Source: a virus (lineage: Duplodnaviria; Caudoviricetes). From it: DNA of 48,652 nt. Positions 28,359 to 48,539 of this stretch are shown here, in pieces (the first letter of the stretch is position 1; every line of letters starts with the position of its first letter). Where the stretch lies: positions 1 through 48,652 of the IMG/VR virus record IMGVR_UViG_3300023218_000070. The stretch is one strand, 5' to 3'. The notes beneath the pieces were generated by a model. It made no database searches, was not told the origin of the DNA, and was given only the letters and a program-made list of their open reading frames with translations. The position numbers were made by a program, and so were the translations under genes.

Positions 28359-28387
28359 AATATCCTTTCTTCAAAGCGAATTGGCAA
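28359..28387 (-). promoter_or_regulatory. Variant promoter TTGCCA-N17-GATATT
   Basis: Same -35 and spacing as the family; an ATG (28352) follows the -10 after 6 nt. Confidence 0.45.
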
Positions 28388-29048
28388 GCCAATCTTCCGG
28401 ATTTTTTACCGCATCGCGAAGTTTTGTCAATGCATCTTCCCTCACCTGACCGATGCGTGCTCTCGAAAGCCCAACGATCCGTCCGATCTCAGTCAAACTT
28501 TTCTGTTTGGCTTCCCCCAGCCCATAGTGCATGCGGATTGTGAATGCTTCGAGATCGTCGAGTCCCGCAGCAGACATGATCGCAGCAGTATCAATTTGTT
28601 CATCAGACTTCGGAGCCGGTGCCTCGGTGTTCTGCACATCCTGATCCTCGTATCGTCGGTCCCATTTCCTGGTCTGAGACTCGCCTTGTTTGGAGATTTC
28701 GCGAACAATAGCCGTACACGCATAGGTACTGAAGCGATAACCCCGCTCTACGTCAAACTTCTCAGCTGCTGCGACCAATCGCTCCAGCCCAATCGACACT
28801 TTCTCATCCATTGATAGATTATTCGTCCTAGAACGCCTTGCCATGCTGACTGCCAGCGGAAGATGTGCTTCAACGATTTGATTGCGGATCCTCCGGTAGT
28901 CCCTGCAATGGGTCGCCGCAGCCCTCCCGGCAGGCAGCGATTCGATCAGCCTTTTCTTCGCATCCAAGAGGCGAAAGAGTCTCACTTCTTCCTCACGGGA
29001 CATCCCTCGGGGGGCGTTGTGGAGCAACGCCTTCTGCGGATTCACCAT
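28371..29048 (-). CDS. Phage-encoded RNA polymerase sigma-70 family factor
   Basis: Region 2 RNQIVEAHLPLAVSMARR...AAEKFDVERGYRFSTYA; region 4 SLTEIGRIVGLSRARIGQVREDALTKLR. Start at the ATG at 29048. Confidence 0.92.
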   Translation of the reverse strand: MVNPQKALLHNAPRGMSREEEVRLFRLLDAKKRLIESLPAGRAAATHCRDYRRIRNQIVEAHLPLAVSMARRSRTNNLSMDEKVSIGLERLVAAAEKFDVERGYRFSTYACTAIVREISKQGESQTRKWDRRYEDQDVQNTEAPAPKSDEQIDTAAIMSAAGLDDLEAFTIRMHYGLGEAKQKSLTEIGRIVGLSRARIGQVREDALTKLRDAVKNPEDWLANSL

Positions 29049-29761
29049 GACAGCCTCTCCTTCATCAAATCGCAATACTTAGCATTTCCGTCCAAGCCGA
29101 TGAAATGCCGATCGAGTTTCCGGCAAGCAACACCCATAGACCCACTACCCGCGAATGCATCGAGGACGGTGTCGCCGGGTCGAGTCCATCCTCTCACGAT
29201 CCGCTCAAGCGGCTCAGGCGGCAGCTGAGCGGGATGCCAGCTCATTCGGTCCGAAGCGTTACCCTGGAGCCGCCGCGTTCTCCAGACGTGCCCAGGGACT
29301 CGACCGTTAGGGCAAGCTCGTGGGTCGCCTCGGCGCTGTCGCTCGCTTTCCTCTCGGATTTCGTCTGGGAAGAATGTCAGCTTCGAACGATCACCAATCA
29401 CTACCGGAAAGAGTAACCGGTAATCGCGAGTCAGGCGCTTGGATTGGTACTGGCTGAATCGTTCATGCCAGATGATGGGTTGATCCCAAAGCAATTCCCC
29501 GATCTTGCGTAGATGCTCCCACACCCACCAGCCATCATGCCCGGGGCAAAGCCACCAGAGGGTACCGCCGTCTCGCACGAGATTAGCACATTCTCCCATG
29601 ACGTATACACACCACTGGCGGTAATCGTGGACATTCCGGGTGTCGTCCACTCCGTCGTATTTCACGCCGTAGTTATACGGTGGGTCGGCGAACACCAAAT
29701 CCACCAAGTCTTCGATCGGCGGATCCGGCTCATCAATTTCCCAGTAATGGTGAATGATCAT
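29042..29761 (-). CDS. DNA methyltransferase, N4-C/N6-A, beta-class order
   Basis: N-terminal DLVFADPPY, then HPAQLP and C-terminal VLDAFAGSGS. Confidence 0.92.
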   Translation of the reverse strand: MIIHHYWEIDEPDPPIEDLVDLVFADPPYNYGVKYDGVDDTRNVHDYRQWCVYVMGECANLVRDGGTLWWLCPGHDGWWVWEHLRKIGELLWDQPIIWHERFSQYQSKRLTRDYRLLFPVVIGDRSKLTFFPDEIREESERQRRGDPRACPNGRVPGHVWRTRRLQGNASDRMSWHPAQLPPEPLERIVRGWTRPGDTVLDAFAGSGSMGVACRKLDRHFIGLDGNAKYCDLMKERLSW

Positions 29762-32115: not shown

Positions 32116-32519
32116 CGGTGCGCTTTCAGGTGCTCGACCAACAGCTGACTAGCTAGCCCCCTCGTACATCTCCATTCGGCGAGTTCACGTAACCGATCGA
32201 CTGTGACCGAGCCTAGATGATCGGCAGCGATATCGCCACGAAGCAGTAGCCACTCCCTACGACATTGCAGCATTACCCAGCACAAACCGCCTCGCGCCGT
32301 CCGACGAAGCAGCCATACTCGTTGTTGCGGTGTGAGCGGATGCTTCAGCTTTACGGGCGTATCCTCACGTTTCGGCCATTCCTGGACCCATTTGCATTCG
32401 ATCCACCCAGCCGTGCACTCGATGTCAGGCGTGCCTGGGCAGGCGGGGTTCTCGACAGCCACCGCGTCGAGTTCCCGCAATGCCAACACGAGTTTCGATC
32501 TCATGTCGGATTCGGACAC
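32112..32519 (-). CDS. PD-(D/E)xK nuclease, VRR-NUC/Holliday-junction-resolvase-like
   Basis: MSE...VEN...PGTPDIE...WIECK...LTPQQRVWL. Confidence 0.82.
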   Translation of the reverse strand: MSESDMRSKLVLALRELDAVAVENPACPGTPDIECTAGWIECKWVQEWPKREDTPVKLKHPLTPQQRVWLLRRTARGGLCWVMLQCRREWLLLRGDIAADHLGSVTVDRLRELAEWRCTRGLASQLLVEHLKAHR

Positions 32520-32935
32520 ACTTCTACTCCAGCTTCTTCAAGGATTATCAATGTTCGATTGAAAGATTCGGACCATCGCTCCAAGACATCTGGCATTGGC
32601 TCTGGGAACACGCACCTCTTGATGCCTGTCTGAACTATGTGCACCGCGCAGCGGCAACATGGCATACATGGCCATGTGTACAACATGTGTCCGTGGAGCG
32701 GTTCCCGGGCGTGCAGAATCGCGTTCATCTCAGCATGGATCATGAGTTCATACTTCAGTTCGCGACAATGCAGCCGGTCATCGTCAGCGATGCCTCGGGG
32801 GAAACCATTGTAGCCCAGGGAGGCGATTGTGCCATCAGCACGGGCAATGACCGCACCAACTTTCGTCGAAGGGTCCTTGCTCCAGGACGCGATGCTTCGG
32901 CACAGGCCCAAGAAACGGTCACCCCATTTATTCAT
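32501..32935 (-). CDS. dCMP deaminase
   Basis: SKDPSTKVGA, GYNGFPRG, IHAEMNA and PCCRC zinc motifs; start at the ATG at 32935. Confidence 0.93.
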   Translation of the reverse strand: MNKWGDRFLGLCRSIASWSKDPSTKVGAVIARADGTIASLGYNGFPRGIADDDRLHCRELKYELMIHAEMNAILHAREPLHGHMLYTWPCMPCCRCAVHIVQTGIKRCVFPEPMPDVLERWSESFNRTLIILEEAGVEVCPNPT

Positions 32936-33104
32936 CGATTTCCTCCCATTCCCACGAGAAAGATTCATGCCACCCATAGGAGTGGAGATGTTCGCGATCG
33001 TCAACCTGATATAGCACCCAACCTGCGCTGTCAGGATGAGGCTTCACCATGGCAGTCTGCCCAGCCAACGAAGCACGATTACCCACGTATCGCATTCTCT
33101 TCAT
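32928..33104 (-). CDS. Hypothetical protein
   Basis: ATGA overlap with the polA stop; fills the gap to the deaminase gene. Confidence 0.55.
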   Translation of the reverse strand: MKRMRYVGNRASLAGQTAMVKPHPDSAGWVLYQVDDREHLHSYGWHESFSWEWEEIDE

Positions 33105-35005
33105 TTCGCTTCTCCCCAACTTGGGCCAATCTCCACGTCAACCATTGATGGCACCTCAAGTTCTACGCACGATTCCATGATCTTCGCCAGCTGCGATGCC
33201 TGCTCAGGAGAATCTATACTCATCCCGATCTCATCATGCACTTGAATCTGCAACCTCAGACCAGCCGCATCAGCTTCTACCATAGCAAGCTTAGTCTGGT
33301 CGGCGCTGCTGCCTTGGATGAGTCGGTTCAGTGCCTTGTGTGTCCAGTCATACCCACCATTTGTCAATGTAGGAAACCTACACTTGCGACCGAGCAAGGT
33401 GTGGATGTATCCTTGTTCCTTCGCCCGGGCTTCCGTCGTCCTTGCGAGCTGACGAACGAATGGAACTTGTCGATTGAACAGATCGATGATGCCTTGAGCT
33501 TGATCACCCGCCACCTCAATCTGGCGACCGGCGCGATTCTTTATGAACTTGGTGGGTAGGCCCAACGACTTTGCCAAAGTAGCCCCGCCCATGCTGTAGC
33601 AGAGACCCAGGAAGATGATCTTCGCATCGGTCCGATGCTTCTTGCTCGGCTGCTCATCTGGGCGGTAGCCGAAGATCTTCCTGGCCAAGAGAGTGTGATT
33701 GTCGGTCTTTGGATCACTACGGTACGCATCCGCGACCTCTTCTGCTCCGACACAGTTGGTTATGGCGGCATAATGCGTCAACATTCGCGGCTCTTGCTGC
33801 GAATAGTCGGCGGCGCACCACAAGTCTCCGTCAGGCACGTAGATAGATCGCCACGCTGCGGCAAAGTCTTCACGGGATGGTTGCTGTTGGAGGTTTGGAT
33901 CTGTCGAAGACAACCTACCATATCGTGCGCCCCGGTTCGAACCATCGTCTGTCCTACGTAGCTGATTGAAAGTGCAATGGATCCGGTCCCCACACAGGTA
34001 GTGCCTAACAGAACTCGCGAACGTGGTGCGGAGCTTGTTTACGCGCCGTGCTCTGTCGATCATGGAGGCGACTGGCACCTTGTCCTTCAAGTTATCTAGC
34101 AACTCCTTGTTGACCTGAGGCTTACCCGACTTCGGTGTTGTGGCTAGATCCACACCGGACTTGCGGAGCGCCTTGGCGAGGGCTCCAGGCTTCCATACGT
34201 CTCCCAGCCGGATGCGGACCCCAGTCTCATCGAAGATATTGTCAAGTTGGCTCTGCTCCTCAGTTTCAGACCATTGCTCGATGCGATCCAACGCATTCAA
34301 GTCAACTCGGATGCCTCGGCGTCTCATCTTGACAAGCACAGGGAGAAGACGACTCTCCAAGTCGTAGACTTCTGTGATGCCTTGGCGTCTGATCTCCTTT
34401 TCTTGGTGTGCGAGAATGTCCAGCACCAACGATGCATCCCGTGCGGCATATTCTGCAACGTACCGGGCCGGTAGCTCGTACATTTGGGCCTTAGCACTAA
34501 CTCCCCAAGCAGATGCGGCGTCCCGTAGCACACTTTCATTCTTGCCAGGGAACCCCCATCTCTTGGCGATAGCGTCGAGCGAGTAGGAATCATGGAGTTC
34601 GTCAATCAACGGATCCGCAACCTGAACATCGCGGAACCACTTGGCTCGACGAAACACGACCCCGGCTTGGGCGAGAAAGTCCAAGTCGTACTGCATGTTG
34701 GCGCCAGCGATCGTTCCCGTGAATACAGCAGCTTGCTCACGCAGGTACCGGAGAACTTGCTCGGGATCCAGGTTGTCGCCACCGCGATGGCGCATCGGCA
34801 GGTAGACACTCGGACCACCTGAGATGCTAAACGACACGCCAACAATGTAGGCACCACGCCGTACGCCTGGGCCGAGACGCTTCAAGTCTGGGTCGTGGGT
34901 TTCGATGTCAATCCCGACGAGTTCCGCGCACCTCCAGCTGGGTAGCTGGCTCAAGTTCGGTGGTTGATAATCCACTTTTGGTTGGAACAGGGGCATTTCT
35001 GTCAT
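33101..35005 (-). CDS. polA: Family A DNA polymerase with 3'-5' exonuclease
   Basis: Exo I DIET; GRLSSTDPNLQQ; motif A DYSQQEPR, motif B RTDAKIIFLGLCYSMG, motif C QVHDE. Start at the ATG at 35005 (ATGA overlap). Confidence 0.95.
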   Translation of the reverse strand: MTEMPLFQPKVDYQPPNLSQLPSWRCAELVGIDIETHDPDLKRLGPGVRRGAYIVGVSFSISGGPSVYLPMRHRGGDNLDPEQVLRYLREQAAVFTGTIAGANMQYDLDFLAQAGVVFRRAKWFRDVQVADPLIDELHDSYSLDAIAKRWGFPGKNESVLRDAASAWGVSAKAQMYELPARYVAEYAARDASLVLDILAHQEKEIRRQGITEVYDLESRLLPVLVKMRRRGIRVDLNALDRIEQWSETEEQSQLDNIFDETGVRIRLGDVWKPGALAKALRKSGVDLATTPKSGKPQVNKELLDNLKDKVPVASMIDRARRVNKLRTTFASSVRHYLCGDRIHCTFNQLRRTDDGSNRGARYGRLSSTDPNLQQQPSREDFAAAWRSIYVPDGDLWCAADYSQQEPRMLTHYAAITNCVGAEEVADAYRSDPKTDNHTLLARKIFGYRPDEQPSKKHRTDAKIIFLGLCYSMGGATLAKSLGLPTKFIKNRAGRQIEVAGDQAQGIIDLFNRQVPFVRQLARTTEARAKEQGYIHTLLGRKCRFPTLTNGGYDWTHKALNRLIQGSSADQTKLAMVEADAAGLRLQIQVHDEIGMSIDSPEQASQLAKIMESCVELEVPSMVDVEIGPSWGEAK

Positions 35006-35433
35006 CGCACCATCCTCAACCTGCCCAGGTGGGGGTTTACTAGGTGCGGGTCCAAACACAGCGGGATCATCCACCTTAGGTTAGGAATCACATCGTCCCA
35101 GGGAACCTCGCTGAGCGGCAGAACAGAAACTTCCTCGTGCGTTGTCGTCTTGGCATCGAGCACGTCGTCCGATCGAATGTGGAAGAAATGAACTTGGTAT
35201 TCGTCCGTGAAGAGGGTAGTCAAGTGACGCCATGCTCGGCTGTCAGTCCGCACACCCGTTTCCTCGCGGAATTCCCTTGCCATGGCATCGTGAGGCATTT
35301 CGCAAGATTCTACCTTGCCACCCACTCCATTCAACCAACCAATCACGGCTGTAGGACCAGTCTGTTTTCTGATGAGTACGGTCTCAGTGTCCTGCTCGTC
35401 GAAAGCCAAGCCGACTACGTAAGTTTTCATCAC
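35002..35433 (-). CDS. Nudix hydrolase
   Basis: Nudix box GGKVESCEMPHDAMAREFREETGV. Confidence 0.9.
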   Translation of the reverse strand: MMKTYVVGLAFDEQDTETVLIRKQTGPTAVIGWLNGVGGKVESCEMPHDAMAREFREETGVRTDSRAWRHLTTLFTDEYQVHFFHIRSDDVLDAKTTTHEEVSVLPLSEVPWDDVIPNLRWMIPLCLDPHLVNPHLGRLRMVR

Positions 35434-35786
35434 GGCTGATTGTCCCGGTGAGTGGTTTTTGCTGCCTCCGCACCCATTGCCTGAGCCTCTGCTTCAACCA
35501 GTAGTAGGTATCTCCGCAGATCGCGGATATCGTCGATCAAACCTTCGGAGCGTTCGTCTGCCAGGATGTGGCCAAACACATCCCATTGCGTAGCGCCGTC
35601 GGTCTTTGATACCCGTCTCTCGATACGATCCCATTTGCGAGCAAGCATCATGAAAGCGCCAGCTCCGCCTCGCAACTTCCAGCTATTACCGTACTCCTTC
35701 TGGGCCGCTTGCAAACCCGCGACATCATTCTGAGCAATCTCACTGAGATGGAGCAGGTAGTCGTTGGTATTCGGATCACTGTACAT
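35430..35786 (-). CDS. Nucleotide-modification-associated all-alpha protein (Nmad1/MazG-like pyrophosphatase)
   Basis: EYGNSWKLRGG...MLARKWDRIE...DDIRDLRRYLLL; adjacent to the TS homolog; start at the ATG at 35786. Confidence 0.65.
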   Translation of the reverse strand: MYSDPNTNDYLLHLSEIAQNDVAGLQAAQKEYGNSWKLRGGAGAFMMLARKWDRIERRVSKTDGATQWDVFGHILADERSEGLIDDIRDLRRYLLLVEAEAQAMGAEAAKTTHRDNQP

Positions 35787-36795
35787 TCTGCTTCTCCTCC
35801 CATGCTTCGCGCTTCTGACGAAGCCAAGTCTCCGCCGCGATTCTCCAATCGCAATCCTCAGGCATCTCAGCCACCCTCCCGAGACCGCGATCGTATTTGT
35901 CGGGTGGCTCGTTGGCAACAAACGCAGCTACCGCCATCTTCATCGGCAAAGCCACCTTCCGCAGAAACGGATCTGTGTGGCCGAGATCGTAGGGGCTATT
36001 GACCCACGAGTGTACATCTTGATAAGAGAACGTCGCCGGATACGGTCGCACGTGGCCAGCTGCATACCGATCGGTGAGGCGGTATATATTGGATGGAAAA
36101 GCGTATTGCGCCAACTCTTCCATCAATCCCGCGTGCCGGTCCGTGTATAGGTGGAGATTGTTCGTGACCTGCCAATACCTCCCTACATCACATCCGATTT
36201 GGTGCGCCAGGAACTCCTGAAGCACGCTGAAGTGAACCACGTTCGCGCCCAACGCTCCCCAGACAACATCGTTGCTCCGGTTGCAGACCGTCATGTTCAG
36301 CACACCATCACGATCCCGGCTGAAGTACACGTGTGTGTTGCAAGGCACGTCCTTGCTGCGAGAAGACAAGTCGGCTGTTGCTGACCACATTGACAGGACC
36401 TGCCGCCTGCAATCAGGGTTCTTCTTCAGGTTATCAGCAATCGCTTCCAGCTGGTCGAAATCGAACCATTTCCGCCACCGATGGCCGTAGGCACCGTGGA
36501 ACACATCCCCATTATCAGAGAACTGCTTGATGCTCGGCACTATGGATGCCAAGAACTTGACGTCGTTCCGTCCGGCAAGCATCCATAGTGCCTCAAGAAG
36601 ATGGAAGAATGGATTAGCCGACCGCTCCGGCCAGAACACAACCCTCTCCAGCGGGCAGTCGAACACCATCGTCGTCGGCTCTGTAAGCTGCAAGACTGGT
36701 CCGTTGCGACTCTGCCGCTTCTCTCCTTTCTGCTTGAGCTGGTGCATCACTTCCGGCAACATCTGGTGCGCGTTACGCGCTCGAATCACGTTCAT
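35776..36795 (-). CDS. Thymidylate-synthase homolog, probable dUMP hydroxymethylase
   Basis: SRNG, NPFFHLLE, catalytic DVPCN, RSNDVVWGALGAN (Asn at the dUMP-specificity position) and NNLHLY; clustered with 5-hmdU kinase genes. Confidence 0.85.
   Translation of the reverse strand: MNVIRARNAHQMLPEVMHQLKQKGEKRQSRNGPVLQLTEPTTMVFDCPLERVVFWPERSANPFFHLLEALWMLAGRNDVKFLASIVPSIKQFSDNGDVFHGAYGHRWRKWFDFDQLEAIADNLKKNPDCRRQVLSMWSATADLSSRSKDVPCNTHVYFSRDRDGVLNMTVCNRSNDVVWGALGANVVHFSVLQEFLAHQIGCDVGRYWQVTNNLHLYTDRHAGLMEELAQYAFPSNIYRLTDRYAAGHVRPYPATFSYQDVHSWVNSPYDLGHTDPFLRKVALPMKMAVAAFVANEPPDKYDRGLGRVAEMPEDCDWRIAAETWLRQKREAWEEKQNVQ
35890..35918 (-). promoter_or_regulatory. Possible internal promoter TTGCCA-N17-TACGAT upstream of the Nmad1-Nudix-polA genes
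   Basis: Family -35, 17-nt spacer and a good -10, but it lies inside a CDS. Confidence 0.35.
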
Positions 36796-36800
36796 TGGAA

Positions 36801-37382
36801 CTACTCCTCTGCTGGCAAGCCCAGCTTCTCACACACAAACCTATACGCTGCTTCACGATCCAGAACTTCCACAGGGATACCGAGCCTCTGGCGCTTATGG
36901 AGTGTCCTAGTAAACTTTCTATATTTCGATTCCGTATTGCTGGGGTCCAAAGGTTTGAATTCACGCCTCAATTGCTCAGCCCTCACCCTACGTCTCTCGT
37001 TGACGGAGTTGATACACTGCTCAAGAGGGGTATCCAACTGAACTTGGATTAGGCCAAAGCCGTTCAGGCGACGTAGCCTATCCATTCCCCACATTGCTAC
37101 TAGAACACCCTCCATGAGTACGCGACGTCCTCGCTGCACTTCCTCTTTCACCGTCGATTCGAGATCATATGCGGCTCCTCGCCAAGAGAACGCATCGCAC
37201 CCGCCGCAAGCATTCTCGTCGTAGCGTCCCATGACTGTAAGCCAGTTGTCATAGACCACACCAACAGGGACTTTCTTTGGTCCAGCGAAAATTTGAGAAC
37301 CCCCGGGCTCTAGTTTCGACAGAATTCTCCTCACAAGGGTAGTCTTGCCCGACCCATGTGTGCCGCAAATCATCAAGATCAT
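36801..37382 (-). CDS. P-loop kinase, probable catalytic subunit of a 5-hmdU DNA kinase
   Basis: ICGTHGSGKTT, GRY...CGGCD, LMEG and LDTPLEQCINSVNERRR; gene context. Confidence 0.8.
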   Translation of the reverse strand: MILMICGTHGSGKTTLVRRILSKLEPGGSQIFAGPKKVPVGVVYDNWLTVMGRYDENACGGCDAFSWRGAAYDLESTVKEEVQRGRRVLMEGVLVAMWGMDRLRRLNGFGLIQVQLDTPLEQCINSVNERRRVRAEQLRREFKPLDPSNTESKYRKFTRTLHKRQRLGIPVEVLDREAAYRFVCEKLGLPAEE

Positions 37383-37789
37383 CTCTGCATCTCCATAATG
37401 CGATCAACGAACACCGGGTTTGCCAAGGCACGCGGACGCACCTGTCGGATGGTATCAATCGCCTCGCTTGGTGTCATTCCATACTGCCGAATCAGGACAA
37501 CTGCCGAAACTGCCGGGCTCCGGTTCCGTCCCGCATGGCAATGAACCAACACGGTGTGGTTATTGTCAAGCCATTGAATCACATCCTGTATCGCTGCCTC
37601 GAACAGGATCCCGTGCCAACGTTTCCCATCGGGGATTGCGTAGTGGGAATACTCCTTCACGATGTTCTGAACTTCTTGTGGTGTACCTTTCTTGACGCAG
37701 GACACAATCGCACTCGCCCCGCACTGTCGAACCATCTGCGGAGTAGGCATACTGCCAATCCATAGCTCATCGATGATGTTGCGCAGCAT
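37379..37789 (-). CDS. Dual-specificity/PTP-like CX5R phosphatase
   Basis: VLVHCHAGRNRS active-site loop; AIPDG acid loop. Confidence 0.9.
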   Translation of the reverse strand: MLRNIIDELWIGSMPTPQMVRQCGASAIVSCVKKGTPQEVQNIVKEYSHYAIPDGKRWHGILFEAAIQDVIQWLDNNHTVLVHCHAGRNRSPAVSAVVLIRQYGMTPSEAIDTIRQVRPRALANPVFVDRIMEMQR

Positions 37790-38775
37790 TAGCCCGTTCT
37801 CCGCACAGGATTTGCCAAGTCCGTTGTTGCAGCATAGTCATACACTAGATCTGACCACGTGTAGTCGTACTCCAGAATAACACTACCTAAGCCGCGTCGG
37901 CCATCCCACCTATTCCCGATCTCACCCAGGCAGTGATGCGGGAACAGCGTTCTACGCGCCTCCCACAACTTCAGGTGCACCTCTGGAAACGCTGCCTCGA
38001 TCTTTCTGGCACGGCCCAACTCGCTGTCGTGCGCGCGTCCTGGGTACTGACCACCGTCGTAGGCCTGCTTGTATTCACACAGCAAGACTTCAGACTCGAA
38101 CCAATCCAGGTCGATGCCATCTTGGTCCCGAAGCCTATTCTTCTCTTCTTGGGCGATCTCATTCACCCGGACCAGGGTATCTGGACGGTTGCCCCCACAG
38201 AGTATCTCGACTTCTTCGGGGCGCAGCCATGCCAACGCCTGCCTTGGGGAATCACCGCCGCGAGGGCGGATGTCTGGGAATGGGTGGTGAAATAGCCCAA
38301 CCCGACGTAGTACTTCATAGAGCTTGGTACTGCCATACCTCCCATTACCCGGCACCTGCGTCACTCGATGCCATCCGGTTTCGAAATCCCTCACCCCCTC
38401 GAATGGATTGGTCTGTAGCCACTTGGCGTATCCCACCATGTGGTCGGCGAAGCGTTTCGCTCCATAGATTGCTCTGCGTTCACGACGCATCTGGAATCCG
38501 TCGTAGTTGGAGGCCATCCAAGCACGGAAGTCTGCCTCCTTCTCCACAACATCCTTTGCAGTTCGCCAGTCTTGAAGAATCACTTCGCCTGTAGCGATTA
38601 CGTAGGGTCCGATGTAGCATCCACACCACCAAGCCACGTCTTCAACACGCGGATCATTCCAAGCGATCCATTGCGCGATCTTCATGTGTGGATCAGGACC
38701 ACCGCCAGCTATCTCCCACACACAGAATTCCCGCATGAATCGCCGGTGTGTCTCTGGGTCACCCTTGATCACCAT
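37789..38775 (-). CDS. Amino acid:DNA transferase-like protein (AADT / aGPT-Pplase2, HhH-glycosylase fold)
   Basis: RERR, GNGRYGSTKLYEVL and ESEVLLCEYKQ...YPG motifs; position in the 5-hmdU cluster. Confidence 0.72.
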   Translation of the reverse strand: MVIKGDPETHRRFMREFCVWEIAGGGPDPHMKIAQWIAWNDPRVEDVAWWCGCYIGPYVIATGEVILQDWRTAKDVVEKEADFRAWMASNYDGFQMRRERRAIYGAKRFADHMVGYAKWLQTNPFEGVRDFETGWHRVTQVPGNGRYGSTKLYEVLRRVGLFHHPFPDIRPRGGDSPRQALAWLRPEEVEILCGGNRPDTLVRVNEIAQEEKNRLRDQDGIDLDWFESEVLLCEYKQAYDGGQYPGRAHDSELGRARKIEAAFPEVHLKLWEARRTLFPHHCLGEIGNRWDGRRGLGSVILEYDYTWSDLVYDYAATTDLANPVRRTG

Positions 38776-39839
38776 GGCAGTTGCCCATTCTTCTTGAGCA
38801 TTGACCGGGCTTCATGGTCATTCATCTGCACTGGTGGTGACTTCATGTAATATGCTGATGGAACCGGCAAAGCTCCACTCTCGCCTCTATCCAAAGCAAG
38901 CTTCGCAGATCTAATCGCATCCATCACAACCCCAGCCGAATTGGGGCTATCGTGCACCTCCAGCTTTAGCTCGATATTGGTCGGCGCACCACCGAAACCT
39001 TCCGCTTCCAGCCTGATATAGCACCACTTTCGATCGTCCAGCCACTGCACGTGATCGCTTGGCCCAACGTGCACATCCCTCTCCGGCAACTCTCGGCCAA
39101 TAGCGCTTGTCACTGCCTGTGTCTTGCTTTTCCGCTTACTGGCAAGGCGATCCTGGTCAAGCATGCCAAGGAAGTCTGTGTTGCCGCCGACGTTGAGTTG
39201 ACTTGTCCGCTTCAGACGAACACCGCGAGCTTCCATCAAGTTCGCCAGGACGCGATGCACAATGGTTGCACCGACTTGGCTCTTGATGTCATCACCGATG
39301 ATTGGCAGCTTGGCCTCCTCGAACTTCTTAGCCCAGTCGGGGTCGGAAGCCAGAAATACCGGCACGCAATTGATATATGCGCACCCAGCATCCAAAGCCG
39401 CCTGAGCGTAATGCCTCACCGCTTGCTCGGAACCCACTGGGAGATAGCCTACGACAATCTGGGCACCCGACTTACGCAGCTCTTCAGCTACGTTCACTGG
39501 CTCCAGGCTGCTCTCACTGACAACGCTTCGAAGCGATGGGCCGATGCCATCGAGTGTAGGACCTCGACGCACCACTGCACCCGTCAACGGCATTCCATCG
39601 GAGAACTGGTAGGTGCAGTTTGGTGGCGACCAGATCGCTTGGACAACGTCGAGCCCGATCTTTCGATCATCGACGTCGAACGCTGCCACCACCTCGATGT
39701 CATGCGGGTAATAACCGCCGAGCACAGGCTCCATCACCCCATCTGGTTTCATGCCTGGCTGGGAGTAATGGTGCAATCCTTGCACGAGGGCTGATGCACA
39801 GTTCCCGACGCCCACGATCGCGATCTTGATGGCACTCAT
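38769..39839 (-). CDS. ino1: Myo-inositol-1(3)-phosphate synthase, bacterial type
   Basis: IAIVGVGNCASALVQG, YLPVGSEQA, GDDIKSQVGATIVHR, QLNVGGNTDF, SKRKSKTQAV, DSPNSAGV and YYMKSPP; the ATG at 39839 overlaps the upstream stop. Confidence 0.95.
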   Translation of the reverse strand: MSAIKIAIVGVGNCASALVQGLHHYSQPGMKPDGVMEPVLGGYYPHDIEVVAAFDVDDRKIGLDVVQAIWSPPNCTYQFSDGMPLTGAVVRRGPTLDGIGPSLRSVVSESSLEPVNVAEELRKSGAQIVVGYLPVGSEQAVRHYAQAALDAGCAYINCVPVFLASDPDWAKKFEEAKLPIIGDDIKSQVGATIVHRVLANLMEARGVRLKRTSQLNVGGNTDFLGMLDQDRLASKRKSKTQAVTSAIGRELPERDVHVGPSDHVQWLDDRKWCYIRLEAEGFGGAPTNIELKLEVHDSPNSAGVVMDAIRSAKLALDRGESGALPVPSAYYMKSPPVQMNDHEARSMLKKNGQLPW

Positions 39840-40666
39840 GCCTGGAATCTCCGCTTCAATCTTTGACCATAGTGCTCTGCTCGGCACCACTTGGCGAATT
39901 CACACAACCAGTGCTCCACTTCTCGCATCTCCCAGCTAGGCCATTCGCTTGGCCAGTAGGTGTGGTGCTGACTCAGTGAGAGAAGATGCTGCATCATAGT
40001 GATGCGCGATGTGGCCTTGTTTGAGAATCGAAGATCATGGTCAAGTATTGACAAACCCTGTATTGCTCCCGGTCCAGGATTCGCCCACGTGAGGACGTCA
40101 GGCGCATCCTTCAACATCGAAGTCCATCGCAGGTCGCTCGTAATCTCATACGCAATGAATCCCCCGACGTAAGGAACAGACTGCAACATCTGCCAAGTTG
40201 ATTGCAAGTTCTTCGCATTTTCCCACACCACTGCTTCGATCTCGTGCACACCGTCCACGATCCAGGCAACCCCATGCACTTTGCTGCGGGAAGCTGGCGT
40301 GTTGATGCGGTATGCCCCGGTCACGACCGAGTGGCAAGAATCCATCACTTCAATGGCGCGTCGCGCATCCCAATTGTGGAAAAGGCCAGCCTCATGCAGC
40401 TTCTCCATCGTCGAGATGCGATTCGTCAGCCTCGCCAACGCCATAGCAGTGACGACGCGCTGTTGATCCCACAGGGGATCGCGGATGTTCTCACGCACCC
40501 ACTCAGTGGTACGGTCGTGCTCCCTAAACACATTGCAGAATCTCCATCTCTGAAACGTCTGGCTGTCCGTCCACGGTGGCGGTTCTCCGCGACGCCGACG
40601 TAGAAAAATTTGATACCGCTCGCGGGCAGTAGTAAAAAACTCTCCGATAGCATCTTCACCAATCAT
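39836..40666 (-). CDS. aGPT-Pplase1 / 5-hmdU DNA kinase helical-domain protein
   Basis: RERYQI, PPWTD..FQRWRFCNVFREHDRTT, GGFIAYEITSD, NPGPGA and EVEHWLCEFAK. Confidence 0.88.
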   Translation of the reverse strand: MIGEDAIGEFFTTARERYQIFLRRRRGEPPPWTDSQTFQRWRFCNVFREHDRTTEWVRENIRDPLWDQQRVVTAMALARLTNRISTMEKLHEAGLFHNWDARRAIEVMDSCHSVVTGAYRINTPASRSKVHGVAWIVDGVHEIEAVVWENAKNLQSTWQMLQSVPYVGGFIAYEITSDLRWTSMLKDAPDVLTWANPGPGAIQGLSILDHDLRFSNKATSRITMMQHLLSLSQHHTYWPSEWPSWEMREVEHWLCEFAKWCRAEHYGQRLKRRFQA

Positions 40667-46757: not shown

Positions 46758-46777
46758 TGTTCGCTCCTTCCACCCCA

Positions 46778-46806
46778 AGTATGCCAAACGATTCCACGGT
46801 TGGCAA
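46778..46806 (-). promoter_or_regulatory. Sigma70-type promoter TTGCCA-N17-CATACT (with TG extension)
   Basis: Part of a ~50-bp repeat shared with 48474-48526 and, in deleted form, 47260-47294. Confidence 0.82.
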
Positions 46807-46885
46807 GTGAAGTAGGTGGAATTTTCGTCACCGTCGCCGCGATGGCCTTCAGGCTCTCATCCACAATGTGTTCCTTCATACGAAG

Positions 46886-47119: not shown

Positions 47120-47265
47120 GCCTCATGGCCAGAGCATCGCCTTGACCCGCTCGGGCGGGTGTGAGGGGAGTCTTTATGCCTCGTTACCGGATTCGGCTCT
47201 TGCCCCGGCCATCTCCGTCGCCCAAGCCACCAGATTCCGTCCTCCAATGGTTCATGCTCACCCCA

Positions 47266-47284
47266 AGTATGCCACGGTTGGCAA
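47266..47284 (-). promoter_or_regulatory. Promoter-repeat copy with a 10-bp spacer deletion (TTGCCA-N7-CATACT)
   Basis: Flanks match the other copies, but the spacer is ACCGTGG instead of ACCGTGGAATCGTTTGG. Confidence 0.7.
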
Positions 47285-47303
47285 GTGAAGTAGGAAGAAA
47301 AAA

Positions 47304-48460: not shown

Positions 48461-48479
48461 GACTGATTCTCCTACCCCA

Positions 48480-48508
48480 AGTATGCCAAACGATTCCATG
48501 ATTGGCAA
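48480..48508 (-). promoter_or_regulatory. Sigma70-type promoter TTGCCA-N17-CATACT heading the early/replication transcript
   Basis: Exact hexamers and 17-nt spacer; an RBS and ATG follow. Confidence 0.82.
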
Positions 48509-48539
48509 GTGAAGTAGGTGGAATTTCTTCGCAAGCCCA

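Follow-up and report, generated by a model that had tools for sequence, protein, structure and literature searches.

The DNA window analysed here is the whole of IMG/VR virus record IMGVR_UViG_3300023218_000070 (Duplodnaviria; Caudoviricetes), a linear sequence of 48,652 nt estimated to be 76% complete. Our subject is a run of eight genes in which a myo-inositol-phosphate synthase (MIPS) stands among homologs of enzymes of thymine hypermodification. The phage is uncultured and of the PaMx11/M6-like kind, and the order of its replication block is the same as in Pseudomonas phages PaMx11 and M6. All genes examined lie on the minus strand; by position, the tail, tape measure, capsid, portal and terminase genes are followed by those for a sigma factor, a methylase, a primase and dCMP deaminase, and then by the family A DNA polymerase gene (polA), the eight-gene run, and the ribonucleotide reductase and helicase genes. 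Judging from sequence, the run represents a genuine and conserved branch, as yet uncharacterised, of the 5-hydroxymethyldeoxyuridine (5-hmdU) kinase/transferase pathway, and it probably makes an inositol-bearing thymine.

The hypermodification gene run

The run encodes an HMUDK-helical protein, MIPS, a homolog of the ADDT-family transferases (below, the transferase), a CX5R dual-specificity-type phosphatase (DSP), a 5-hmdU kinase homolog, a thymidylate-synthase (TS)-fold enzyme, an Nmad1-like protein and a Nudix hydrolase (Table 1). An earlier note on this DNA had described these eight open reading frames as tightly coupled, and all of them were indeed found on the minus strand where it had placed them, with neighbours overlapping or separated by no more than 5 nt. 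The junction is ATGA between ribonucleotide reductase and HMUDK-helical, HMUDK-helical and MIPS, DSP and kinase, and Nudix and PolA (the stop codon of Nudix runs into the PolA start, the ATG at 35005), TAATG between transferase and DSP, and GTGA between Nmad1-like and Nudix. The MIPS and transferase genes overlap by 7 nt, the TS-fold and Nmad1-like genes (start of the latter at 35786) by 11 nt, and the gap between the kinase and TS-fold genes is 5 nt. The true start of MIPS is the ATG at 39839.

Table 1. Genes and repeats of the window (positions in nt, protein lengths in amino acids)
Feature	Positions	Strand	Length	Family evidence
HMUDK-helical / aGPT-Pplase1 protein	39836..40666	-	276	PF18723, E 9.5e-39
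Myo-inositol-phosphate synthase (MIPS/Ino1), full length	38769..39839	-	356	PF01658, E 8.7e-34
ADDT/aGPT-Pplase2-family transferase, uncharacterised clade	37789..38775	-	328	PF18724, E 6.8e-5
CX5R cysteine phosphatase (DSP), HCHAGRNRS	37379..37789	-	136	DSPc, E 2.6e-14 (over cut-off)
P-loop 5-hmdU DNA kinase homolog	36801..37382	-	193	PF18748 (HMUDK), E 3.2e-5 (below cut-off)
Thymidylate-synthase-fold enzyme	35776..36795	-	339	TS, E 9.3e-27
Nmad1-like protein	35430..35786	-	118	51% to Pam3 gp54 'nucleotide modification', E 7e-40
Nudix hydrolase	35002..35433	-	143	PF00293, E 1.1e-10
Family A DNA polymerase (PolA)	33101..35005	-		PF00476, E 7.9e-57
dCMP deaminase (would supply dUMP)	32501..33004	-		PF00383, E 5.9e-18
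N6/N4 DNA methyltransferase	29042-29761			
Sigma-70-family factor	28371-29075			
58-nt intergenic repeat, three copies	46767-46824, 47245-47302, 48469-48526			

The gene assignments made earlier were upheld by Pfam and by comparison with PaMx11 and M6 proteins; the kinase and the transferase, which both score under the Pfam cut-offs, were given additional homology checks. Over 96% of its length, the kinase shows 35.7% identity (E 6e-19) to PaMx11 gp49, which Table 1 of PMC8989533 names as a 5-hmdU DNA kinase; the Walker A and EG motifs of the window protein align with those of M6 gp54. The best phage match of the TS-fold enzyme is PaMx11 gp51 (52.7%); with M6 gp58 (47%) it has the RSND..GAN motif in common, and by this orthology it is likely a dUMP hydroxymethylase rather than a synthase. 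The HMUDK-helical protein is 41% identical to PaMx11 gp50. It had been counted among the components proposed for the transfer reaction; the family assignment holds, and its positional equivalent M6 gp55 was dispensable for group transfer in vitro in the experiments cited from PMC8989533.

Residues 3-349 (347 positions) of the window MIPS align to the inositol-3-phosphate synthase of PDB entry 1gr0 (E 1.3e-127), to which it is much nearer (429 bits) than to 6k96, a five-membered-cyclitol synthase within the MIPS family (185 bits). Against the mycothiol-specific model TIGR03450 it scores 472, short of the cut-off of 638. Residues D183, D184, K186, N220, D222, K235, K239, D269, K271 and K333 are invariant in all 35 transferase-linked MIPS proteins, and we take the conserved Lys and Asp residues to be catalytic.

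Searches for radical S-adenosylmethionine (SAM) proteins (PF04055), pyridoxal phosphate (PLP) enzymes (PF00291), FAD oxidoreductases (PF01266) and dihydrofolate reductase (PF00186) gave no match in this 76%-complete record, in agreement with the earlier report that PLP and radical-SAM genes are missing. The accompanying claim that MIPS and the phosphatase occupy the slots of those genes is correct for DSP, which lies between the transferase and the kinase, and incorrect for MIPS, which lies upstream.

The transferase clade and its phosphatase

The PF18724 score of the window transferase (23.1 bits) is below the 26.2-bit cut-off, which other members of its clade exceed (e.g. 49.4 bits). Family membership is further indicated by an HHalign probability of 96% between the profiles of this clade and the M6 clade, by a TM of 0.84 between an Atlas model and an ADDT cluster, and by the ERR, G-x-x-x-x-x-K and E-x-x-L-C motifs, across which the protein can be aligned to M6 gp51. 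Cys-233, aligned with C247 of M6 gp51, is invariant in 93 of 93 sequences, and Glu-229 of the window protein aligns with E243 of M6. Position 234 is filled by Glu, Asp or Asn, whereas R100, G145, R146, Y147, D250, G284 and E285 are invariant. The clade also has near-invariant arginines (R97, R146, R178, R274, and R293) and a conserved C-terminal extension beyond the end of M6 gp51, which could bind a phosphorylated acceptor. The gene product is predicted to be an inositol(-phosphate):DNA transferase.

The clade counts 268 representatives at E<=1e-30 and forms a single branch apart from the M6-type and actinophage enzymes (SH-aLRT 99 in a quick tree). No solved structure matched the transferase profile, and no cultured phage carrying this clade was found: tblastn with three clade members returned solely actinophage homologs at 24-30% (11 records) or no match, and the three actinophage loci inspected are without DSP and MIPS, their transferases branching outside the clade. 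Among genome contigs, none of 22 pattern matches was confirmed.

The phosphatase partner retains the catalytic signature, with C84 and R90 in 95 of 95 sequences and the general-acid D54 in 88. A PTEN-like basic residue directly after the DSP cysteine was considered and rejected, as that position is variable and only the Arg or Lys at +4 is kept (87/95). PTEN and PTPMT1 are among weak PDB matches, and the best matches of the clade profile are generic DSPs. Among the best 150 transferase representatives, of which 18 long proteins were checked, 14 are transferase-DSP fusions and none is a fusion with MIPS. Apparent DSP-kinase fusions occur in two loci (L035:9050-10114 and, from length and position only, L041:3139-4128).

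Genomic neighbourhoods of the transferase and of viral MIPS

An alignment of 49 of 52 transferase homologs yielded 79 viral and 80 metagenome loci (159 in all, one shared identifier being counted once), which fell into 102 groups at 80% identity; after 52 groups with less than 3 kb on either side were dropped, 50 informative lineages remained. The control consisted of 87 M6/PaMx11-clade loci (best 80 of 285 and of 233) in 60 groups, 45 of them informative. A MIPS gene is found within 6 kb in 26 of the 50 lineages of the transferase clade vs none of the 45 in the control clade, so that MIPS is recurrently and specifically linked to this transferase clade; a lack of such recurrence was one of the outcomes that the earlier note had named as refuting its idea. 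The DSP gene is beside the transferase in 50/50 lineages vs 0/45 in the control. Although the profile used for DSP derives from the test loci themselves, a profile of that family picks up generic DSPs at E 1e-21, so that poor sensitivity is an unlikely explanation of the zero in the control. Thus, of the MIPS-phosphatase pair envisaged earlier, DSP proved an obligate partner, whereas MIPS, missing from 24 of the 50, did not.

MIPS lies directly upstream of the transferase in 12 of the 26 lineages and one gene away in another 12, and in 11 of the latter the intervening gene encodes a small-molecule enzyme (FkbM methyltransferase in four, HAD phosphatase in four, radical SAM in two and class I methyltransferase in one). 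The order MIPS-ADDT-DSP recurs across lineages and is missing from the control clade, which is more than expected by chance. Over all 50 lineages, FkbM methyltransferase is near the transferase in 10, HAD phosphatase in 7, and a radical-SAM protein of the twitch/SPASM type in 5; nothing informative came from searching the PDB with the radical-SAM and FkbM partners. Genes for PLP, FAD-lyase, M6-type radical-SAM, and acetyltransferase enzymes are found in none of the 50 vs 12, 27, 14, and 10 of the 45 control lineages, respectively. The HMUDK-helical gene, present in 39 of 45 control lineages, is near the transferase in 22 of 50, and its position within the cluster is mobile. By cluster type, MIPS is present in 18 of the 28 clusters with TS, in 1 of the 12 of the TET/ParB type and in 7 of the 10 that are of neither type. 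The MIPS-minus loci are richer in GC (median 0.61 vs 0.55, p 0.003), a weak hint of other hosts that we do not use as evidence. The transferase-DSP pair is also found in 12 ParB-TET-kinase clusters (L008, L011, L025, L033, L036, L049, L051, L053, L061, L103, L150, and L153): several adjoin terminase genes, one has MIPS, and in three the TET/kinase/ParB genes are oriented in the opposite direction.

MIPS-plus and MIPS-minus transferases are intermixed on the tree (for instance, L140 with L029/L046, and L064/L068 with L020/L021), and none of the conserved columns examined separates them. The transferase-linked MIPS proteins form two groups beside bacterial MIPS, whereas those of phages Cr30, RP13, and Mendera form a separate clade (FastTree). 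In Mantel tests on 20 complete clusters, rho was 0.63 for transferase-DSP and 0.14 for transferase-MIPS, indicating that the transferase travels together with DSP and that MIPS behaves as a supply gene; rho was 0.58 for kinase-TS and -0.03 for transferase-kinase.

In the reverse direction, scanning viral contigs with a single MIPS sequence found nothing, whereas a MIPS alignment gave 429 viral matches, the best 80 of which were kept (62 groups, 48 informative lineages). In this sample 28 of the 48 lineages adjoin the present transferase clade and DSP, and base-modification clusters of other kinds account for a further 13 (eight QueC/FolE, four TS with an HMUDK-helical-like gene, and one TET with a Cr30-type ADDT). 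With 41 of 48 lineages in clusters for DNA base modification, viral MIPS appears in this sample to be mostly a DNA-modification accessory. Six of the others are ParB-linked, and one is without a recognised modification gene. Cultured phages contribute 19 records with MIPS, and three were examined: the clusters comprise FolE, MIPS, QueC-like, and QueE genes in Stenotrophomonas phage Mendera, TET, ADDT (E 1e-52), MIPS, and kinase in Cr30, and ADDT-like, HMUDK-helical, MIPS, and HMUD2 in RP13.

Several of these settings are distinct from that of the window. MIPS in QueC/FolE-type 7-deazaguanine clusters (L201, L210, L221, L228, L229, L231, L236, L238, and Mendera L002:7098-12624) is often beside a small HAD-like phosphatase and sometimes an FkbM or other methyltransferase, which suggests an inositol-bearing purine. 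ParB-like genes accompany MIPS in L226, L230, L232, L233, L234, and L243; in the three of these loci that were scanned, a DegT aminotransferase gene is directly upstream of MIPS, and two also have a PAPS-reductase-like gene, so such loci could make an aminocyclitol. In L227, L244, L247, and L251, TS, MIPS, and a long HMUDK-helical-like protein occur together, and no ADDT was recognised there; three of the four loci have dCMP deaminase, and three have a small HAD-like gene. The RP13 locus (L004:1805-13532) combines an ADDT-like gene (E 6e-13 to that of Cr30), MIPS, and an HMUD2 kinase-family gene (PF18747, E 1.4e-13); this last match contrasts with the statement, in the cited part of PMC13697223, that no 5-hmU DNA kinase was detected in RP13. 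The same paper describes RP13 DNA as heavily modified and states that the modification has yet to be identified. Database proteins P0054, P0055, and P0261 have internally duplicated MIPS or ADDT regions and may be assembly artefacts.

As for the remaining genes of the window, the Nmad1-like open reading frame has no Pfam match, and the Nudix hydrolase, possibly involved in nucleotide-pool control, is not a constant member of the cluster, with a tblastn match in 1 (L006) of 162 loci. Promoter and terminator counts in the window are at chance level. Two of the three copies of the 58-nt intergenic repeat (93% and 60% identity) hold a sigma-70-like TTGCCA-17-CATACT on the minus strand, and the repeats are likely early promoters. 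The genes for the sigma-70-family factor and the N6/N4 DNA methyltransferase lie between the primase and packaging genes.

A candidate route to inositol-substituted thymine

The cluster very probably hypermodifies thymine through 5-phosphomethyldeoxyuridine (5-PmdU). In the route that we propose, dCMP deaminase and the TS-fold enzyme, the latter 47-53% identical to the M6 and PaMx11 enzymes, would provide hmdUMP, and the P-loop kinase would form 5-PmdU on DNA, as its homologs do according to the cited part of PMC8989533. The earlier note had the kinase attach pyrophosphate; this has to be revised, since the product described in that part of the study (Lee 2022) is the monophosphate, and pyrophosphate was not seen there. 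Cys-233 of the transferase would then add to C6 of the base, and departure of the phosphate would leave an exocyclic methylene. Such a mechanism is supported for M6 gp51: in the work cited, the M6-type transferase requires a cysteine and a glutamate and acts through an exocyclic methylene, which can be trapped by glycine nitrogen, serine oxygen, mercaptoethanol, or borohydride (PMC8989533). A ring hydroxyl of inositol-3-phosphate made by MIPS would attack the methylene, for which the serine of phage ViI offers a precedent as an oxygen nucleophile, and DSP would strip the inositol phosphate on DNA. MIPS-minus relatives may draw on inositol phosphate of the host. That inositol or a derivative of it ends up in the base we consider likely; for the product itself we lean, with some reserve, towards ether-linked inositol, or its phosphate, on thymine, whereas the exact order of transfer followed by trimming is tentative. 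The predicted 5-(myo-inositol-O-methyl)-dU would have a calculated nucleoside mass of about 420 Da (500 if phosphorylated), isobaric with hexosyl-hmdU such as base J.

The closest known systems, PaMx11 (5-AcNmdU) and M6 (5-NedU), likewise have the cluster between ribonucleotide reductase and PolA, with related kinase (36%), TS-fold (47-53%) and HMUDK-helical (41%) proteins and an ADDT-family transferase with a catalytic cysteine. However, the window transferase is only 16-18% identical to theirs and belongs to a separate, long-branched clade, DSP replaces the PLP and radical-SAM genes of M6 and the FAD-lyase and acetyltransferase genes of PaMx11, and MIPS is added. Salmonella phage ViI (5-NeOmdU) also uses a hydroxyl nucleophile, serine being O-linked by gp247 to give an ether at the C5 methylene (cited from PMC8989533), but there the nucleophile is an amino acid, from which a PLP enzyme later removes the carboxyl group. 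In Caulobacter phage Cr30 and Ralstonia phage RP13, MIPS is next to an ADDT-family gene and accompanied by hmU-kinase-type genes; both their ADDT and their MIPS clades differ from those of the window, and in Cr30 the places of TS and DSP are taken by a TET/JBP gene and a small phosphatase, HAD-like to judge from its DxD motif. The glycosylated hmC and hmU bases, like base J, carry a C6 polyol on the 5-hydroxymethyl group, with the same nominal mass increment (+162) as the predicted adduct. They are, however, glycosides formed by glycosyltransferases from nucleotide sugars, whereas the predicted base is a cyclitol ether reached through a phosphorylated base. A cyclitol ether would resist glycosidases.

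Searches of open-licence papers on inositol in phage DNA modification turned up no description of an inositol-bearing nucleobase, in line with the earlier note, which knew of none. Neither PMC8989533, supplement included, nor PMC13229309 or PMC13697223 contains the word inositol, and in the parts cited here of PMC13326640, bioRxiv 2023.12.21.572611, and PMC9025141 it appears only in homolog names or for a gene of bacterial origin, MIPS being listed in the last merely as a phage gene of presumably bacterial origin.

Several observations count against the route proposed above. Position 229 of the transferase is Glu in 52, Gln in 33, and Ala in 8 of 93 sequences, whereas the corresponding glutamate of the M6 clade is invariant (62/62), so the chemistry may differ. 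The comparison of 26/50 with 0/45 sets one clade against another, so that the lineages do not count as independent cases and a Fisher p of 8e-10 exaggerates the contrast. The reverse test, with the 80 of 429 proteins most similar to the window MIPS, favours relatives. DSP co-occurs with HAD phosphatase in 7 of 50 lineages and so may not be what removes the inositol phosphate, and its structural relatives, mostly generic protein phosphatases, give no pointer to an inositol substrate. MIPS is not nearby in 24 of the 50 lineages and was found elsewhere in none of the 19 MIPS-minus lineages whose whole records were searchable (only 2 are at least 90% complete). The correlation of its distances with those of the transferase is low (p 0.04), and it tracks the kinase (rho 0.35) and TS (0.27) better. 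The facts about MIPS, together with the retention of DSP in all 50 lineages and the four viral lineages with MIPS beside an HMUDK-helical-like gene and no recognised ADDT, speak for an alternative in which the transferase installs another phosphorylated nucleophile of the host (e.g. glycerol phosphate, a sugar phosphate or phosphoserine) for DSP to trim, MIPS being optional and serving another enzyme, such as HMUDK-helical, or host metabolism. We regard this as unlikely: MIPS is missing from all 45 M6-clade lineages though 39 carry the HMUDK-helical gene, in 24 of 26 cases no more than one gene stands between it and the transferase, and the intermixing of MIPS-plus and MIPS-minus transferases, with no separating column among the conserved ones examined, fits one shared substrate with an optional supply.

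Phosphate-bridged polyol or sugar chains on thymine, reported for SP-15 and Carin-5 in the cited part of PMC12686479, raise the alternative that inositol is joined via its phosphate oxygen (T-CH2-O-P-inositol) and that DSP merely clears phosphate from unreacted 5-PmdU; the variable Glu/Gln/Ala at position 229 could suit an anionic nucleophile. Yet M6-type systems make the same 5-PmdU and have DSP in none of 45 lineages, a product-specific step accounts better for the fusion of transferase and DSP and for their co-variation, and chains of the SP-15 type are built by glycosyltransferase blocks, none of which was seen in the window. This linkage seems to us improbable. Very improbable, in our estimate, is a nucleophile that is an inositol-derived amine (inosamine) or another cyclitol (a product of the MIPS family that is not myo-inositol), which would give an N-linked base resembling the known amino-acid adducts. 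The M6, PaMx11, and PhiW-14 transferases do use amines (cited from PMC8989533), DegT-family aminotransferases flank MIPS in L226, L230, and L233, and the MIPS family includes the cyclitol synthase 6k96; but the window MIPS is far closer to 1gr0, and no aminotransferase is among 35 annotated recurrent-neighbour proteins, for which no dedicated search was made.

By analogy, the modification probably serves nuclease resistance, in an anti-restriction role. More broadly, the clade may consist of inositol-phosphate:DNA transferases with a dedicated DNA-adduct phosphatase, inositol being a modular DNA substituent that is further methylated or radically tailored and that two transferase clades came to place on thymine, with a separate recruitment onto 7-deazaguanine. 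There would then be a family of cyclitol-bearing DNA bases that, by mass alone, would be mistaken for hexosylated ones; we hold this generalisation to be somewhat less likely than not. If ether-linked inositol is indeed the product, the 'amino acid:DNA transferases' would extend to a carbohydrate-like nucleophile, a cysteine phosphatase would have its first role on a DNA adduct, and the carriage of MIPS by phages would be explained. It would also offer a candidate for the modification of RP13 DNA.

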